A stretch of DNA of 63,841 bases, counting the filler, from an uncultured Methanosarcinales archaeon (GTDB lineage: Archaea; Nanobdellota; Nanobdellia; Woesearchaeales; CAYPCY01), in NCBI GenBank assembly GCA_964409385.1. It is 5 parts of 5 records of this genome, joined end to end, with 100 filler letters (N's around TTAATTAATTAA, not from the genome) between each part and the next. Parts side by side here need not be neighbours in the genome. Positions count along the whole stretch, not along the records: positions 25,072 to 40,300 come from CAYPCY010000008.1; 4 more parts are not named here. One strand, written 5' to 3'. Every line of letters begins with the position of its first letter. The stretch's first letter is position 1. Below, piece after piece: positions 24,972-60,272 of this stretch. The position numbers and the translations under genes were made by a program. The notes below the pieces were generated by a model. It did no database searches. It was not told where the DNA came from and saw only the letters and a program-made list of their open reading frames with translations.

Positions 24972-25071
24972 NNNNNNNNNNNNNNNNNNNNNNNNNNNNN
25001 NNNNNNNNNNNNNNNTTAATTAATTAANNNNNNNNNNNNNNNNNNNNNNNNNNNNNNNNNNNNNNNNNNNN
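24972..25071. other. Artificial contig linker
   Basis: N run - TTAATTAATTAA - N run. Confidence 0.98.
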
Positions 25072-27768: not shown

Positions 27769-28947
27769 ATGATTATTGGTATTGTTGGAAAGCCAAATTG
27801 TGGGAAGTCCACTTTTTTCAAGGCTTTAACTCTTGCAGAGGTTGAAATTGCTAATTATCCTTTCGCTACTATAAAACCAAATCATGGTGTTGGGTTTGTC
27901 AAGGTTGATTGTCCTGACAAATTCTTTAAGGTTTCTTGCAATCCTAGAGAGGGTTATTGTCATAATAATGAAAGATTCGTGCCTGTTGATGTTATTGATG
28001 TTGCGGGATTAGTTCCTGGAGCTCATGAGGGTAAGGGCATGGGTAATCAATTCTTAAGTGATTTGAACCAGGCTGATGCTTTAATTCATGTTATTGATGT
28101 TTCTGGATCTACTAATGAAAAGGGGGAAACTGTTGATAAGGGTTTTTACGATCCTGCTAATGATATTAAATTTTTAGAAGCTGAACTTGATCATTGGTAT
28201 TTAGGTATTTTGAAGAAAGGTTGGGAAAAGTTTGCTAGACAAGTTCAACAAACTAATTCTGATATTACTAAAGCATTAACAAAACAACTTTCAGGGCTTG
28301 GAGTTGATGAGGAAATTTGTAAATCTGTTTTAAGAAAATTAAACTTTACAGAAAAACCAGCTACTGAATGGGCTAAAGAAGAATTATTGGAACTAGCTAC
28401 TGAATTTAGAAAAGCAACTAAGCCGTTAATAATTGCTGCTAATAAGATTGATGTTTCCAAAGATAATTTTGAAAGATTAAAAAAACAATTTCCTGAATTA
28501 ACTATTATTCCTTGCTCTGCAGAATCAGAACTTGCTTTGAAAGAAGCTTCTAAACATAAATTAATAGATTATATTTCTGGAAGTACTGATTTTAAGATTC
28601 TTAAGAAAATGACTGAACAACAAGAAAATGCTTTAAATTTCATAAAAAATAATGTTTTAGAAAATACTACTGGCGTTCAAAAAGTTATTAACAATGCAGT
28701 TTTTAAAATTTTAAAATATAAAGCAATATTTCCAGGAGGGGTTAATAATCTTGCTGATTCTGACGGTAATGTTCTTCCTGATTGTTTCTTAATGCCTCCT
28801 AAAGCTACTGCTTTAGATTTTGCTTTTAGGATTCATACTGATATTGGTAAAGCATTTGTAAAAGCGATTGATGTTAAGAAGAAATTACCTGTTGCTAAAG
28901 ATCATATGTTAGAATCTGGTGATGTTGTTGAAATTATGACATCTTAA
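27769..28947 (+). CDS. ychF: YchF/Ola1 family ATPase (OBG GTPase superfamily)
   Basis: GKPNCGKST, ANYPFATIKPN, DVAGLVPGAHEGKGMGNQFL, TGS domain. Confidence 0.96.
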   Translation: MIIGIVGKPNCGKSTFFKALTLAEVEIANYPFATIKPNHGVGFVKVDCPDKFFKVSCNPREGYCHNNERFVPVDVIDVAGLVPGAHEGKGMGNQFLSDLNQADALIHVIDVSGSTNEKGETVDKGFYDPANDIKFLEAELDHWYLGILKKGWEKFARQVQQTNSDITKALTKQLSGLGVDEEICKSVLRKLNFTEKPATEWAKEELLELATEFRKATKPLIIAANKIDVSKDNFERLKKQFPELTIIPCSAESELALKEASKHKLIDYISGSTDFKILKKMTEQQENALNFIKNNVLENTTGVQKVINNAVFKILKYKAIFPGGVNNLADSDGNVLPDCFLMPPKATALDFAFRIHTDIGKAFVKAIDVKKKLPVAKDHMLESGDVVEIMTS

Positions 28948-29957
28948 AGAAGAATATTAAATAGATATCCTATGAATAAAACTTGTGGTACTGTTATTAT
29001 TGGAAGCCAAATTGCTGTTTTTTTTCCTATATTATTCCATATTAATCCAATTTCAGTATAGTCTGTTGCTACTCCTGCCATTAGGAAAACAAATGGATTT
29101 CCTAGAGTTCCTACTTTACTAAAAATTTCAAATGCAATTGGTGAACTTCCTTCGCTACATACTTCTATTATTGTTGCGAAAAGTAAAGTTAATAATACTC
29201 CTGTGAATGAAGGTCCAAAGTATTGCATGAAAATATGAGCTGGAACGTATGCTCTTATTACTGCAGCAATTGTGAAGCCTATTAGTATCCACCATAAAAC
29301 CATATTTGCTAAATGTATTGTTCCATTATAAGTGCCTTTAATGCTTTTTTTAAGATTGAAATTTTTAATATTTTTCCAAGTATAAGTTTCTTTAAATTTC
29401 ACTTTTTTAGATTGTTCTATTAATTTGCTTTTTTCTAATATTGTAAAAATAAATCCTGTGATTAATGCTATTAACATTGCACCTAGTACAAATAATAATG
29501 CCTTCCAACCAAAAAATCCGAATAAGAGAATTGTTACTGGGAGATTAGCCCAAGGAGATGCTAATAAGAATGTTATTACTGCAGGAATTCCTGCACCTTT
29601 TTTATAAAGTTGCATGGATATTGCAAGTATTCCATGAGAACATGCAGATAATAAAAATCCTGCTATTACTGCATACAATAAAGTTGTTTTTTTCTTTCTT
29701 CCTAAATATTTAAAGATGAATTCTTCAGGAACAAAATATTCAATTAAACCTCCGATTACTAATCCTAAAAGAATTGCCCACCATATTAAACTAATATAAG
29801 ATAGTACACTTTCATTCAATGCTGTTAAGAATGGATGAAAAGAAACCAGCAAAATTATAATGAAAAGTGTTCCAACAATTTTTAGTTTCTTTCCTATTTT
29901 TACTAATGATCTATTCTCTTTTTCAGGTTCACAATGATGACAAGTTTTATCTTTCAT
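28944..29957 (-). CDS. DUF318/ArsP-like permease
   Basis: About 8 TMs in two repeats; SACSHG, FLLASPW, EVCSEGSSP, FLMAG; N-terminal CHHC. Confidence 0.85.
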   Translation of the reverse strand: MKDKTCHHCEPEKENRSLVKIGKKLKIVGTLFIIILLVSFHPFLTALNESVLSYISLIWWAILLGLVIGGLIEYFVPEEFIFKYLGRKKKTTLLYAVIAGFLLSACSHGILAISMQLYKKGAGIPAVITFLLASPWANLPVTILLFGFFGWKALLFVLGAMLIALITGFIFTILEKSKLIEQSKKVKFKETYTWKNIKNFNLKKSIKGTYNGTIHLANMVLWWILIGFTIAAVIRAYVPAHIFMQYFGPSFTGVLLTLLFATIIEVCSEGSSPIAFEIFSKVGTLGNPFVFLMAGVATDYTEIGLIWNNIGKKTAIWLPIITVPQVLFIGYLFNILL

Positions 29958-30302
29958 TTACTTATACGCATTTAAATTTTCTAAATTTTCGAAATAATAA
30001 ACTGTATTGAAAAGATCAACTCCTATTATTGCAGTTGCTTTATCTACTGAAGATCCACTTACTGGATCTATTGCAAATCTTATTGATGGATCGTTTTCTA
30101 ATTTTGCCTTGCAGCCCATGCAACAACCATAATATGTTTTTCCGTCTACTTCTACTGGTATTTGTTCTGTTGTGTATGCATCATCATTTACCATACAAAC
30201 ATATTTGGATTCTATTATTGAGAGTTTGGCTTCTTCAGTAACCATTCCTGTCGTTGTACATCCCATTATAAAAACTAAAAAAATTGCTATTATTATTTTC
30301 AT
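29958..30302 (-). CDS. YHS/TRASH-like exported metal-binding protein
   Basis: Signal/lipobox-like IMGC; VCMVND, YYGCCMGC, AIDPVSG..VDK. Confidence 0.8.
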   Translation of the reverse strand: MKIIIAIFLVFIMGCTTTGMVTEEAKLSIIESKYVCMVNDDAYTTEQIPVEVDGKTYYGCCMGCKAKLENDPSIRFAIDPVSGSSVDKATAIIGVDLFNTVYYFENLENLNAYK

Positions 30303-30424
30303 TTTATCGCATTCCTTATTATTTCAGAATTGCAAGCATTGTGTTTCTTGCAATAATCTTCGCATTGTTTGGCTAAACTTTCTTCAGAATATTTAAAACC
30401 ACATTCTTTACAAGTATAGCTCAT
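30299..30424 (-). CDS. 41-aa Cys-rich zinc-finger microprotein (absent from ORF track)
   Basis: MSYTCKECGFKYSEESLAKQCEDYCKKHNACNSEIIRNAIK; ATGA overlaps with both neighbours. Confidence 0.8.
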   Translation of the reverse strand: MSYTCKECGFKYSEESLAKQCEDYCKKHNACNSEIIRNAIK

Positions 30425-30744
30425 TCTAATGGGCATTCTGAAAGTTGTGCTAGTGTTTCTAGACTTTGCTCTCCTGAATATGTTTCTCCATTAATATACC
30501 ATGTTGGATAACCTTGTACTCCTGCATTAGTACATGCTTGAGGATTATTATCGCAATTCACATAAGCTACATTTTTGAATGAATTTCCAAACTGTGATTT
30601 TTGATTTTGACAGTATGAACACCAATCTGTTCCATACATTATTACGCCATTATCAGTTAGACAATTTGCGAACTCATCATAATTTCCTGTTCCTGAACAT
30701 GCTGCTAATAATAACAAACTTATGATAAAAATTGTTTTTTTCAT
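30421..30744 (-). CDS. Thioredoxin/glutaredoxin-like lipoprotein
   Basis: LLAAC lipobox; MYGTDWCSYC, YVNC...C...VQGYPTW. Confidence 0.85.
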   Translation of the reverse strand: MKKTIFIISLLLLAACSGTGNYDEFANCLTDNGVIMYGTDWCSYCQNQKSQFGNSFKNVAYVNCDNNPQACTNAGVQGYPTWYINGETYSGEQSLETLAQLSECPLE

Positions 30745-30768: not shown

Positions 30769-31227
30769 TTAATTTTGTTCAGTTATTGGATAGTCGTATT
30801 TTTCAAATATTATTTGTTTTAATGTACTTAAATGTTGTTCTCCTACTTCTTCTGCTATAGCCGTCGCAAAATATTCTGCGAGGTAGGGATTACCATGTCC
30901 TTCTAATATTTCACCAATACACTCTCCACAGGGGTGTTTTCCTAAAATTATATCATTTAAACAATCGCATGAGGCTCCTTCTCCGTGTCCTGGTGTTTTT
31001 TCTATACAGTACATACAAGGTTGATCTAAGCAACATCTGTATTTATGTTCTGGTCTTAGTTCTTCTTGAATTGAATTTTTTAATGATGTGAATGTTTCTG
31101 TTTTGTGTTCCATACTTTGATGGTCTTCCATAAATCCATTAAATAGTTGGACTACTATTATTACTGAAATTATTAATACTAGGTTTTTGATAAACAGATT
31201 TCTTTTATTTCTTTTTTTAAATCTCAT
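30769..31227 (-). CDS. Membrane-anchored Cys-rich hypothetical protein
   Basis: N-terminal TM; eight Cys in YRCC..PCMYC...CDC...HPCGEC. Confidence 0.75.
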   Translation of the reverse strand: MRFKKRNKRNLFIKNLVLIISVIIVVQLFNGFMEDHQSMEHKTETFTSLKNSIQEELRPEHKYRCCLDQPCMYCIEKTPGHGEGASCDCLNDIILGKHPCGECIGEILEGHGNPYLAEYFATAIAEEVGEQHLSTLKQIIFEKYDYPITEQN

Positions 31228-31237
31228 TTTTCACACC

Positions 31238-31699
31238 TCATATTGTTATTCTTTCAGAATATTGTCCGTTTGTTAAATGATATATTGTCCATGGTTCTGT
31301 TTTTGGTCCTGGCATTCCTGGTGTGCCTGATGGCATTCTCGGTAGTGAAACTCCGTCCACATCTGGTTTTTCTTCTAAAAAATTGATTACTTCATCTATT
31401 GGAACATGTCCTTCAATAAAATAATCGCCTATTACCATTGTATGACAACTTTCCATGTTTTTTGGGATTTGATATTTATCTTTTATACTTTTCAAATCTT
31501 GAGAATTGACTGTTTCTACCTCAAACCCTTGCTTTCTCAACTCATCTATCTACCCTACACAACAACCACAAGTTTCTGATTTATAGACTAAAGCTTCATT
31601 ATTTCCTATCTTGTTAATTAACTCTTCAGAATCTACGCTTGGAGTACAACTAACAATAAATATTGTTAATACTAACAATAACAGAGGAAAAAGTCTCAT
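31238..31699 (-). pseudogene. DUF411 (CopG-like) metal-binding lipoprotein interrupted by in-frame TAG at 31550-31552
   Basis: MRLFPLLLLV..VSC...YKSETCGCCVG*IDELRKQGF...SCHT...YFIEGHVP...MPSGTPGMPG in one frame. Confidence 0.8.
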
Positions 31700-31701
31700 T
31701 C

Positions 31702-31902
31702 TCAACAACCACCTACCATTGTTGCTGGTGCTTGTATTCTTGTTGATTCTGCTGTTCTTTGACTTGTTGTTACTGGGGTATTTATTTCTCCCGTTTCAAT
31801 TTGTTCTTTTATTGAGTCTATTTGTATTGTTTGTGCTATTGAAAAAATTAGTAAGAAAAAAACTAGCACCATCATCAAATAATTTTTGTTTTTTATTTTC
31901 AT
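31702..31902 (-). CDS. Small single-pass membrane protein ending MVGGC
   Basis: TM, Thr/Ser-rich linker, PATMVGGC; start 2 nt after upstream stop. Confidence 0.75.
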   Translation of the reverse strand: MKIKNKNYLMMVLVFFLLIFSIAQTIQIDSIKEQIETGEINTPVTTSQRTAESTRIQAPATMVGGC

Positions 31903-31904
31903 TT

Positions 31905-32561
31905 TTAACATCCCCCTACCATTCCGCCACTTGCTTGTCCTTTTTCAATTCCTCTATTTGCATTTGTGGCTAATGATAAAAAATTCACTTCTATTCCTTG
32001 TTCTTTCATTATTTGTTCTTTCCCTTCATGTATTCCTGGGAAAAAGAGCATTTTTAGTTTAGAAACTTCTTCTAATATTAATGTATCACTCATATCAGGA
32101 TAATTTCTTATTAAATATTTTGTGATTCCTCTCATTGCATAAGCATGTGCACAACCGCATGCTGACTGTCCATTTTCTGAAATTATTGATCTTGCACCAC
32201 AGCAGTATTCACATGAAATTCCTCCAAAATCAGTATATAATATTTTTATGTATCTTTCTAATTCATTACTTGTTAATGTTATTGATCTGTCTAGATTTGA
32301 AAATTTTGAAATTGCCACATCTGCTTTTGCAGGGTCGTAAGGATCTATATCTTCATAATAAAAGTCTAGATCATTTCCATAAAATTCAGGAATTCCTTTT
32401 AATGAAGCTACTAATGAAGTTGTTACAGATCCTGTAGCTAAACTTCCCATATTATTTGAAGAAGTTGTTAATGAACTTAATTGATAAGCATTTACTACTA
32501 TTATTAATAATGTTACTGCTATTAATCCAAATAAAATGTTTTCGTTGTTTTTTTTATTCAT
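31905..32561 (-). CDS. Single-pass Cys/His-motif protein ending MVGGC
   Basis: TM; ISCEYCCGA, ACGCAHAYAMRG; GGMVGGC; GAGGGG SD and TATA upstream. Confidence 0.8.
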   Translation of the reverse strand: MNKKNNENILFGLIAVTLLIIVVNAYQLSSLTTSSNNMGSLATGSVTTSLVASLKGIPEFYGNDLDFYYEDIDPYDPAKADVAISKFSNLDRSITLTSNELERYIKILYTDFGGISCEYCCGARSIISENGQSACGCAHAYAMRGITKYLIRNYPDMSDTLILEEVSKLKMLFFPGIHEGKEQIMKEQGIEVNFLSLATNANRGIEKGQASGGMVGGC

Positions 32562-32615: not shown

Positions 32616-32629
32616 TGAAACTAGTTTCA
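32616..32629. promoter_or_regulatory. Perfect palindrome TGAAACTAGTTTCA beside TATA box (candidate operator)
   Basis: 14-bp palindrome just upstream of minus-strand TTTTATAAA (about 32599-32608); extra TGAAAC/GTTTCA half-sites at 32592 and 33071. Confidence 0.5.
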
Positions 32630-33067
32630 TTCCTTTAGAATAACTACGTTTGTCATGCCTCGTCTTTTCCTTTCTATAATTCCTTTTCCTTCTAATTTAT
32701 CTAGAAGTCTAGAAACTTTTACTTTATTTAGTTCTAATTTTTCTACTAGTTCTGATTGGAAACTTGTTCCTTCTGATTGTCTTAATTTCCTAACTATTTT
32801 TTTTTCTTCATTTGTTAAATCATATTTCTTTCTTATTATTTTATTATCTGCAAAGAACACAAGATATATTCCTATCAATACTGTTAATGACATAACTAAT
32901 AATCCTATGTTTGTTTGTAATTGTATTGTTCCCCACATTGGACAAGTATTTCCATGAGTGCATGCTGAAGCAACTATTTCTTTTAGTGCTTTATTAAACA
33001 TTAAGATTATTATTCCTATTATTATTGCAAAGCCTATTATTATTCCTCCTACTATTTTGTTTTTCAT
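32627..33067 (-). CDS. Membrane-anchored winged-helix regulator
   Basis: Two TMs flanking CTHGNTCPM; C-terminal FQSELVEK..LNKVKVSRLLDKLEGKGIIERKRRGMTN. Confidence 0.85.
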   Translation of the reverse strand: MKNKIVGGIIIGFAIIIGIIILMFNKALKEIVASACTHGNTCPMWGTIQLQTNIGLLVMSLTVLIGIYLVFFADNKIIRKKYDLTNEEKKIVRKLRQSEGTSFQSELVEKLELNKVKVSRLLDKLEGKGIIERKRRGMTNVVILKE

Positions 33068-40300: not shown

Positions 40301-40400
40301 NNNNNNNNNNNNNNNNNNNNNNNNNNNNNNNNNNNNNNNNNNNNTTAATTAATTAANNNNNNNNNNNNNNNNNNNNNNNNNNNNNNNNNNNNNNNNNNNN
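40301..40400. other. Artificial contig linker
   Basis: N run - TTAATTAATTAA - N run. Confidence 0.98.
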
Positions 40401-50353: not shown

Positions 50354-50453
50354 NNNNNNNNNNNNNNNNNNNNNNNNNNNNNNNNNNNNNNNNNNNNTTA
50401 ATTAATTAANNNNNNNNNNNNNNNNNNNNNNNNNNNNNNNNNNNNNNNNNNNN
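50354..50453. other. Artificial contig linker
   Basis: N run - TTAATTAATTAA - N run. Confidence 0.98.
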
Positions 50454-60172: not shown

Positions 60173-60272
60173 NNNNNNNNNNNNNNNNNNNNNNNNNNNN
60201 NNNNNNNNNNNNNNNNTTAATTAATTAANNNNNNNNNNNNNNNNNNNNNNNNNNNNNNNNNNNNNNNNNNNN
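60173..60272. other. Artificial contig linker
   Basis: N run - TTAATTAATTAA - N run. Confidence 0.98.

Follow-up and report, generated by a model that had tools for sequence, protein, structure and literature searches.

Why do two adjacent and otherwise dissimilar proteins of an uncultured archaeon end in exactly the same five residues, MVGGC? The two proteins are encoded in a stretch of DNA of 63,841 nucleotides (nt), referred to here as the window, from GenBank assembly GCA_964409385.1 (Woesearchaeales in the GTDB taxonomy). We call them the large protein, which has 218 amino acids (aa), and the small protein. The window consists of assembly contigs joined by spacers of N (24972-25071, 40301-40400, 50354-50453 and 60173-60272), and because these runs of N separate distinct contigs, gene neighbourhoods are not to be read across them. 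The gene pair is located on contig C8 (15.2 kilobases, kb) of an assembly that amounts to 798 kb, has a G+C content of 30%, and is 100% complete as judged by marker genes. The analysis described in this report supports the conclusion that the carboxy-terminal MVGGC is a selected and portable functional module. The gene pair itself belongs to an undescribed but widely conserved cassette that is located in copper-handling gene clusters and in which the last Cys probably serves as a working arm.

A sequence-only reading of this locus had noted that both proteins end in MVGGC and that their glycine codons partly differ, and this was confirmed (GGG GGA in the large gene, GGT GGT in the small gene). 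In the whole genome, MVGGC or VGGC is the ending of exactly two of the 18,495 stop-to-stop open reading frames (ORFs) of at least 20 aa, namely the adjacent pair described here. Based on amino acid composition, 0.00026 such endings would be expected among the 5,634 ORFs of at least 40 aa. Pairs of ORFs that lie at most 2 kb apart and have identical last five residues number just three in the entire genome. The two genes overlap by 7 nt (ATGTTAA, 31905-31911). At 31909-31911, the final codons of the large gene already contain the first ATG of the small ORF, and GGA TGT TAA is re-read there as ATG TTA A.. at the start of the small gene. Because this first ATG falls within the end of the large gene, several small proteins of the window's type begin "ML.M" (loci L004, L005, L061 and L071). 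The overlap suggests translational coupling, with the true start of the small protein at either the first or the second Met.

The shared ending is conserved well beyond this genome. Homologues of the large protein with an expectation value (E) of at most 0.001 accounted for 560 of 757 candidates, and the named ones come from metagenome-assembled genomes (MAGs) of Pace-, Woese- and Nanoarchaeota. All of the 120 closest homologues listed end in Cys, with 110 ending in MVGGC, six in MIGSC, two in MVGAC, one in MVGDC and one in MIGAC. An exhaustive search of representatives clustered at 50% identity recovered 249 proteins at E ≤ 0.001, and the best 150 of these include 129 with a terminal Cys. Among the other 21, five have the motif followed by 1 to about 18 further residues, and 16 lack it, many of these being short or broken off inside the domain. 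In both sets (120/120 and 129/150, respectively), the Cys is strictly terminal, with nothing after it. A few cluster members are named from MAGs of Micrarchaeota, Burarchaeum, Magasanikbacteria (of the candidate phyla radiation, CPR) and Desulfobacterales. A literature search for the motif in the full text of articles found no relevant paper.

The 129 Cys-ending representatives define the tail consensus LPx[M/Q]VGGC. Numbered backward from the terminal Cys, Gly is present at -2 in all 129 proteins, and a further Gly stands directly before the Cys in 111; Val occupies -3 in 115, Pro occupies -6 in 91, and the residue before this Pro is Leu in 74. The residue at -4 is Met in 91, Gln in 34, Trp in three and Ile in one. 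This last distribution speaks against an obligatory Met/Cys chelate of Cu(I); a Met/Cys arm that carries Cu(I) was one of the chemistries suggested by the sequence-only reading.

We compared the arrangement of the genes in 80 related loci, which are the best 80 of 260 confirmed matches to the large-protein family in a search that used an alignment of its closer homologues as query; two of the 80 are labelled as bacterial MAGs. By using the pattern [MQ][VIA]G[GSADE]C for the ending, additional tail-bearing ORFs were found in 75 loci (one in 50, two in 23 and three in 2). Nearly all are small ORFs, mostly with a transmembrane (TM) anchor, that immediately follow the large gene in the same orientation. 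The five loci without such an ORF are L018 and L051, in which the contig edge comes right after the large gene, L003, and the two bacterial-labelled loci, L069 and L076. Chance or recent duplication as the source of the common tail was considered and is ruled out by the genome-wide ORF counts, by conservation in homologues and by the presence of separate tail-bearing ORFs in these 75 loci. Selection on the peptide, as the sequence-only reading had suspected from the codons, is thereby supported.

Every one of the 101 small proteins has a single hydrophobic helix, a variable linker and the tail, and three types can be distinguished. The first is about 53 aa long and ends ...AGQAASAYSGMVGGC. The second is about 80 aa long and carries a Met/His motif, D[TM]SGWTENE[IK]MNYEMHGT[IL]PAR or ETYEEMMARMHPDQV. 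The third, to which the window's small protein belongs, has a juxtamembrane element, FSxVQAxQIxxIK, and ends ...AP[TAS]MVGGC. The window's own representative consists of a Lys-rich N-terminus, one TM helix, the juxtamembrane sequence IAQTIQIDSIK, a linker rich in Thr, Ser and Gln, and the tail. An alignment of 17 proteins of this type (the window's and 16 from other loci) has M1, L20, Q27 and MVGGC as invariant positions. The small protein had been described as nothing but an anchor, a linker and a tail. These three parts are indeed present, but they are not all, given the additional conserved juxtamembrane element and its invariant Q27. A regular expression for the element matches 33 of the 101 small proteins, 4 of the 81 large ones, and 15 of 1,596 other ORFs. 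As the element is confined to the third type and a few large proteins, we no longer regard the small protein as simply the large protein minus its domain.

Several other features of the small proteins were observed. The linker Met/His motif (WTENE[IK]MNYEMHGT[IL]PAR, or its alternative form) occurs in many mini-proteins, for example in L008, L016, L038, L049 and L059, among others. Several small proteins have an N-terminal Cys-Cys motif (e.g., MDCCENK) before the TM helix, which is to say on the opposite side from the linker. As sequence features, both motifs would support a role in metal chemistry. In L021 (7881-8826), the large and small proteins both end in the rare variant MVGDC. Co-variation of the two tails is not a rule, because five other loci pair a variant large tail (MIGSC, MIGAC, MVGAC or QVGSC) with MVGGC small tails. 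In three loci, a second, paralogous ORF of the LPxMVGGC type is present a few kilobases away (L020:12771-13773, L053:3318-3536 and L065:14980-15222), and the second copy in L020 is a complete pair of large and small genes.

The large protein is composed of an N-terminal TM anchor, a low-complexity spacer, a helical Cys-rich ectodomain and the end GGMVGGC-COOH. Its ectodomain contains two motifs, C117-E-Y-C120-C121 and C135-G-C137-A-H139. Across 108 diverse full-length members, whose identity with the window protein is 24-53%, the following residues do not vary: C117, C120, C121, C135, C137, H139, G145, P175, G216 and C218. They include six Cys and one His. Neither tail protein was assigned to a family in Pfam (E ≤ 0.01) or in NCBIfam, where three relatives were scanned as well. 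Matches of the 108 members to Pfam were scattered and at chance level (105 families at E ≤ 1), and neither CcmH (PF03918) nor PCYCGC (PF13798) was among the 25 most-matched of these families. PF13798 also did not match the window's large protein, and PF04214 (CopG/DUF411, with a CxCC motif) matched neither tail protein. At E ≤ 0.001, the PF03918 profile found nothing in the whole genome; the same profile finds CcmH in 4 of 14 control genomes. A profile of the family compared with the sequences of solved structures gave DsbA as its best match, which is not significant (E 0.62), and the ESM Atlas returned unnamed clusters only (scores 0.93, 0.92 and 0.88).

An AlphaFold2 model based on the 108-sequence alignment is all-helical, with a mean predicted local distance difference test (pLDDT) of 91.5 and a predicted template modelling score of 0.78. 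The model has a TM helix at residues 7-32 and further helices at 77-93, 98-113, 138-153, 159-173, 175-187 and 194-198, and it places the CEYCC and CGCAH motifs in a loop (114-137) between the helices 98-113 and 138-153. The last 18 residues have pLDDT values of 84-87. In a model of a distant member (P0151, 273 aa), the linker at 251-260 has a pLDDT of 54, and the tip at 261-273 has values of 80-90. This pattern is as expected for a tail that docks back onto the domain, and the models predict such docking. When a tail-less large ectodomain (45-204) was modelled together with the small protein (28-69), the best score reached 0.23, where the mark is 0.32, in a prediction run without controls, and this speaks neither for nor against an interaction. 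In an exhaustive structural search with VIA, the periplasmic domain of CcmH (2hl7_A) ranked first of 48,161 chains for both models. The match was Z 6.0 for the window model (root-mean-square deviation 2.9, 75 of 82 residues aligned) and Z 5.8 for P0151 (3.3, 77 of 82), although the tool cautions that matches with Z of less than 8 (less than about 13 in the case of helical bundles) may mean a common arrangement only. The fold, and with it the likeness to CcmH, is a prediction.

Gene neighbourhoods of the 80 loci were surveyed in two ways: by homology search with the window proteins (phmmer, over the fetched loci, which extend up to 8 kb on either side), and by clustering of neighbouring proteins within 5 kb. 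The most common neighbour is a membrane-bound regulator of the MarR/DUF7343 type, found in 66 loci by homology and 62 by clustering. DUF411 follows, with 54 and 51 loci. Clustering also found P-type ATPases in 28 loci, with the motifs CPC in 26, YNx4P in 28 and MxxSS in 27, a combination that we take to be the signature of Cu(I)/Ag(I) P1B-1 pumps. Other neighbours in the clusters are a 176-aa membrane protein starting AHC[PA]LC (51 loci), a membrane protein of 146 aa that carries a CC motif (27), two alternative proteins with lengths of about 146 and 164 aa (24 loci each), and DsbA-like proteins in 18 loci; separate PCYCGC genes are present in six loci. Pfam scans of neighbours, which covered 46 proteins from loci L004, L049 and L012 and 20 cluster representatives, additionally identified cupredoxin-like domains, HMA, HMA-DsbD_2-cupredoxin fusions, DUF302, DUF5676, rhodanese lipoproteins, YHS, hemerythrin and PCYCGC. 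The sequence-only reading had staked its case on a tail conserved in homologues and on metal-related neighbours. The tail is conserved, and the neighbourhood, with DUF411/CopG, Cu(I)-type ATPases, cupredoxins, YHS and HMA, is metal-related.

Three unannotated membrane families were observed downstream of DUF411 (L004:9372-10333 and L049:9708-11093; 51, 24 and 27 of the 80 loci). These are the 176-aa AHCPLC protein, a 146-aa protein with four helices and CxxC in the first of them (FCVIC...ECCKRW, with a C-terminal CC), and a 146-aa protein with CC in a helix. The layout of the four-helix protein seems to us reminiscent of MerC/MerT.

Association with DUF411 was also assessed by co-occurrence in 301 genomes of the phylum, drawn evenly and each at least 90% complete. 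The large-protein family is present in 76 of them (70 of 225 genera) and DUF411 in 38. A comparison of the two tables by hand found the large-protein family in 35 of the 38 genomes with DUF411 (the exceptions being G048, G115 and G197), an association that is overstated because the sampled genomes are related and not independent. DUF411 is also known as CopG, which is described in excerpts of a published account as a periplasmic, extracytoplasmic copper-resistance protein that uses its CxCC motif to bind a tetranuclear Cu cluster and is linked to CopA and Cus systems (PMC7558416). Among the proteins with names, it is the most faithful neighbour of the cassette. It is nevertheless a separate gene, and has a thioredoxin-like fold. 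The tail is conserved, and so is the gene pair, which has an operon context and co-occurs with DUF411.

The window's own cluster is listed in Table 1. Its regulator has two TM helices flanking an outward loop, ACTHGNTCPMW, and a C-terminal winged helix. The outward loop of its relatives also contains two Cys, often followed by Pro-Met or Pro-Ala-His, and this membrane regulator is a candidate one-component sensor of the extracytoplasmic metal or redox state. The thioredoxin-like lipoprotein, which had been suggested to service the tail, has homologues in just nine of the 80 loci, and this counts against the suggestion. The 45-aa protein likewise has homologues in nine loci, and the 152-aa Cys-rich protein in eight. 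The cluster ends in an ArsP_1-type permease that comes closest, in NCBIfam, to the models of the SO_0444 Cu/Zn efflux transporter and of SaoE (NF033936 and NF040736, with E of 1.3e-34 and 9.2e-31, both sub-threshold); 28 of the 80 related loci instead have a CPC-type ATPase near the cassette.

Table 1. Tail-bearing genes of the window and the genes that accompany them (positions in the window)
Feature	Position	Strand	Evidence or remarks
Large tail protein, 218 aa	31905-32561	-	ORF read directly; ends ...ASGGMVGGC
Tail codons of the large gene, ATG GTA GGG GGA TGT, and TAA stop	31922-31905	-	Read directly
Small tail protein, 69 aa (66 aa from second ATG at 31902)	31702-31911	-	Ends ...APATMVGGC
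Tail codons of the small gene, ATG GTA GGT GGT TGT, and TGA stop	31719-31702	-	Read directly
Membrane-bound MarR/DUF7343-type regulator	32627-33067	-	Pfam DUF7343 3.1e-12, MarR 3.1e-9
DUF411 (CopG-like) lipoprotein gene, CGCC motif	31238-31708	-	PF04214 2.6e-22 when read through TAG
TM-anchored Cys/His-rich protein, 152 aa, CC...PCMYC...GHGEG..CDC...PCGEC...GHG	30769-31227	-	No family
Thioredoxin-like lipoprotein, WCSYC	30421-30744	-	Pfam Thioredoxin 5.9e-7
Cys-rich protein, 45 aa	30299-30436	-	Sub-threshold NCBIfam NF053762 (aCcr1 cell-cycle regulator), E 2.7e-5, 23.9 bits vs cut-off 60
Lipoprotein with weak YHS/TRASH-like metal-binding motif	29958-30302	-	Pfam YHS 4.8e-4, TRASH 9.7e-3, both below cut-off
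ArsP_1-type permease, N-terminal C-H-H-C	28944-29957	-	PF03773 1e-41

The best explanation of these observations is that the two genes are the core of a "cysteine-arm" cassette, which belongs to copper/thiol homeostasis islands of DPANN archaea (named for Diapherotrites, Parvarchaeota, Aenigmarchaeota, Nanoarchaeota and Nanohaloarchaeota) and of some ultra-small bacteria. As to what the cassette does, we tentatively favour an extracytoplasmic system of Cys-tipped arms that handles Cu(I) and thiols, a reading that holds somewhat less than half of our confidence. The proteins would face the outside of the cell, because their N-termini are Lys-rich. The large protein would comprise a single TM anchor and an exposed helical domain that possibly resembles CcmH and contains five invariant Cys and one His, and its ...GGMVGGC-COOH end would fold back on this domain and supply the terminal Cys as a sixth thiol. 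The small protein would act as a membrane tether, presenting the same tip on a flexible linker. Cu(I) would be picked up at the cell surface by the terminal thiolate, with the help of the Met at -4 where this is present. The tip might then dock in a pocket of the large protein beside the CxxCC/CGC-H site for loading, unloading or reduction. From there, we infer, the metal could be passed on to DUF411/CopG or to the Cys-pair membrane proteins, with the arm being kept in a reduced state.

A number of points weigh against this copper-handling reading. With Gln at -4 in so many representatives, the tail cannot act as a Met/Cys chelate in all members, and one thiol alone makes a weak site for Cu(I). 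The rhodanese, DsbA-like and DsbD_2 genes of the islands fit a sulfur or disulfide role equally well. No family model, whether of CcmH, CopG or others, matches the large protein, and the fold match to CcmH is weak by the standard of the tool itself. Foldseek found no match in the PDB at E ≤ 0.001, and re-examination with VIA of the 177 matches that it returned produced none above Z 2.3. The co-occurrence with DUF411 has to be discounted for the relatedness of the genomes, as stated above. Moreover, the island in the window is reduced. Homologues of its ArsP-type permease and of its YHS lipoprotein were found in none of the 80 loci, and a CPC-type ATPase was not found in the genome, whose sole P-type ATPase (contig C1, 39612-42290) is without the CPC motif. 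The DUF411 gene contains an in-frame TAG (31550-31552) right after CGCC, at a position that is Tyr in 22 of 34 homologues. We rejected recoding, as 96 of the 574 long ORFs of this genome end in TAG, which makes it an ordinary stop. A single-base change from TAT or TAC would account for the codon, which most likely represents either a nonsense mutation or a variant of the assembly.

The same evidence can be read without a metal. In a thiol-disulfide relay, the large protein would be a CcmH-like oxidoreductase, and the MVGGC tips, both its own and those of the small proteins, would serve as shuttle or substrate thiols by forming mixed disulfides with CxxCC/CGC. Redox equivalents would thereby travel between membrane conduits (CcdA/DsbD_2 and Cys-pair TM proteins) and surface proteins damaged by copper or oxidative stress. 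According to excerpts of its published description, CcmH is a single-TM-anchored thiol-oxidoreductase that forms a three-helix bundle, and the loop joining helices 1 and 2 carries its LRCPKC motif, next to a pocket for a Cys-containing apocytochrome peptide (PMC3884852). The large protein likewise has a single TM helix and would be extracytoplasmic; a small helical bundle, a CxxC in the loop after the first helix of the bundle, and a pocket for a Cys-bearing peptide may be further points of likeness. CcmH is the top structural match of two models, and the helix of the large protein that aligns with CcmH helix 1 would be followed by the loop with the CxxC, the exact register being inferred. A relay would also accommodate the DsbA-like proteins of 18 loci, the DsbD_2 fusions and thioredoxin-like proteins of the islands, the even number of invariant Cys, and the tolerance of Gln at -4, which suits a recognition peptide rather than a ligand. 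Against this stands the lone terminal Cys, which cannot cycle by means of an intramolecular disulfide. The Met/His and N-terminal Cys-Cys motifs of many small partners point to a metal, as does the close association with DUF411 and with ATPases of the Cu(I) type. The resemblance in fold is weak, in a range of Z that the tool calls uninformative for helical proteins, and the Pfam model of CcmH does not match. The large protein is not related to CcmH in sequence, having ISCEYCCG and a second motif, CGCAH, in place of LRCPKC, and its domain is about twice as big, with a C-terminal Cys tail that is predicted to be docked. No Ccm genes were among the scanned neighbours, and the aimed search covered CcmH alone. 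We regard a metal-free relay as unlikely.

Still less probable is that the arm carries sulfur. By this explanation, the tail would hold sulfane sulfur as a persulfide or polysulfide in the manner of SoxY, would be loaded by the rhodanese-type lipoproteins of the islands, and would perhaps precipitate or buffer thiophilic metals as sulfides. SoxY is a periplasmic carrier that, in the excerpts consulted of two published accounts, holds sulfur-cycle intermediates on the Cys of a C-terminal GGCGG swinging arm and presents this Gly-flanked working Cys at the extreme C-terminus to several partners (PMC6067878 and PMC5336275). The MVGGC tail is likewise tipped by Gly-Gly-Cys, and lipoproteins with a rhodanese domain are indeed present in some islands (L004 and L012). 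Rhodanese is absent from the frequent neighbour clusters, and Pfam scans of the window cluster and of the scanned neighbours found no Sox, Dsr or sulfur-oxidation family. The fold of SoxY is a beta-sandwich, unlike the all-helical model of the large protein. In addition, the Cys of the cassette proteins is the very last residue (VGGC-COOH), with no GG after it. SoxY also differs from them in its partner, SoxZ, whereas the cassette proteins are membrane-tethered, form a set of large and small proteins, and are encoded among copper rather than Sox genes.

We consider it just as improbable that the cargo is a different thiophilic metal, such as Hg(II), Ag(I), Cd(II) or Zn(II), with the tails acting as MerP-like scavenger arms that feed membrane proteins with Cys pairs like those of MerC/MerT. 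Several membrane proteins of the islands do have CxxC or CC in a TM helix together with a C-terminal CC, and MerC and MerT have a similar layout of Cys pairs; the permease of the window is also nearest to a Cu/Zn efflux model. Yet no Mer family was found in the Pfam scans of the window cluster and the scanned neighbours, the ATPases carry CPC, YNx4P and MxxSS in 26-28 of 28 cases, and DUF411 and cupredoxins are copper proteins.

Least probable of all, and in our view very doubtful, is that the tail is a processing, lipidation or conjugation signal (VGGC as a C-terminal lipobox, or a Gly-Gly cleavage site), which would serve for anchoring or cross-linking rather than for chemistry; the sequence-only reading had suggested a Gly-Gly-Cys processing or conjugation signal. 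In its favour, the motif is found strictly at the end of the protein, the lipobox pattern [LVI][ASTVI][GAS]C accommodates V-G-G-C, and the organism uses N-terminal lipoboxes on neighbouring genes (IMGC, LAAC and IVSC). Against it, a lipobox directly follows the h-region of an N-terminal signal peptide and MVGGC is at the extreme C-terminus, some 40-190 residues past the TM helix; in sortase, exosortase and archaeosortase signals the motif is followed by a TM helix and a basic cluster, and nothing of this kind follows the tail Cys; the proteins are already TM-anchored; no conserved transferase, protease, ligase or sortase-like gene is beside the cassette in the scanned clusters and families; and AlphaFold2 predicts, with high confidence, that the tip sits on the domain of the same protein.

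Terminal-Cys carrier arms and CcmH-like oxidoreductases are the known kinds of protein to which this undescribed family comes closest. A flexible C-terminal peptide also brings a reactive Cys into an active site in DsrC, in HypE (its PRIC tail), in Erv2 (its CGC tail) and in MerA (its C-terminal Cys pair). Those proteins are cytoplasmic or unrelated and have different motifs, and we know of none among them whose arm has been duplicated onto separate mini-proteins.

The copper-handling reading can be extended to a more specific hypothesis, which is doubtful at present. The cassette might represent a new class of extracytoplasmic metallochaperones, in which tethered "fishing-line" mini-proteins and a CcmH-like Cys5-His hub relay Cu(I) by swapping tips in a single docking pocket. 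They might be controlled by the membrane MarR-type regulator, which would sense the same species through its outward Cys-x(n)-Cys-Pro-Met loop. Such a system could be a surface copper defence special to ultra-small cells that are wall-less or have only an S-layer (DPANN and CPR).

The genomes of DPANN archaea and CPR bacteria are tiny, and much of the biology of their cell surfaces is unknown. The cassette is present in a quarter of the sampled genomes of the archaeon's phylum, and has no Pfam or NCBIfam model. The combination of a hub with tethered mini-proteins that have one common tip is unusual, and it can be tested directly with peptides. If the terminal Cys is in fact a cargo arm, then the cassette would represent a new way of dealing with copper and thiol stress on the outer side of the membrane. 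The five-residue ending would be a compact and portable functional tag, and it would provide a function for hundreds of proteins that are now called hypothetical.

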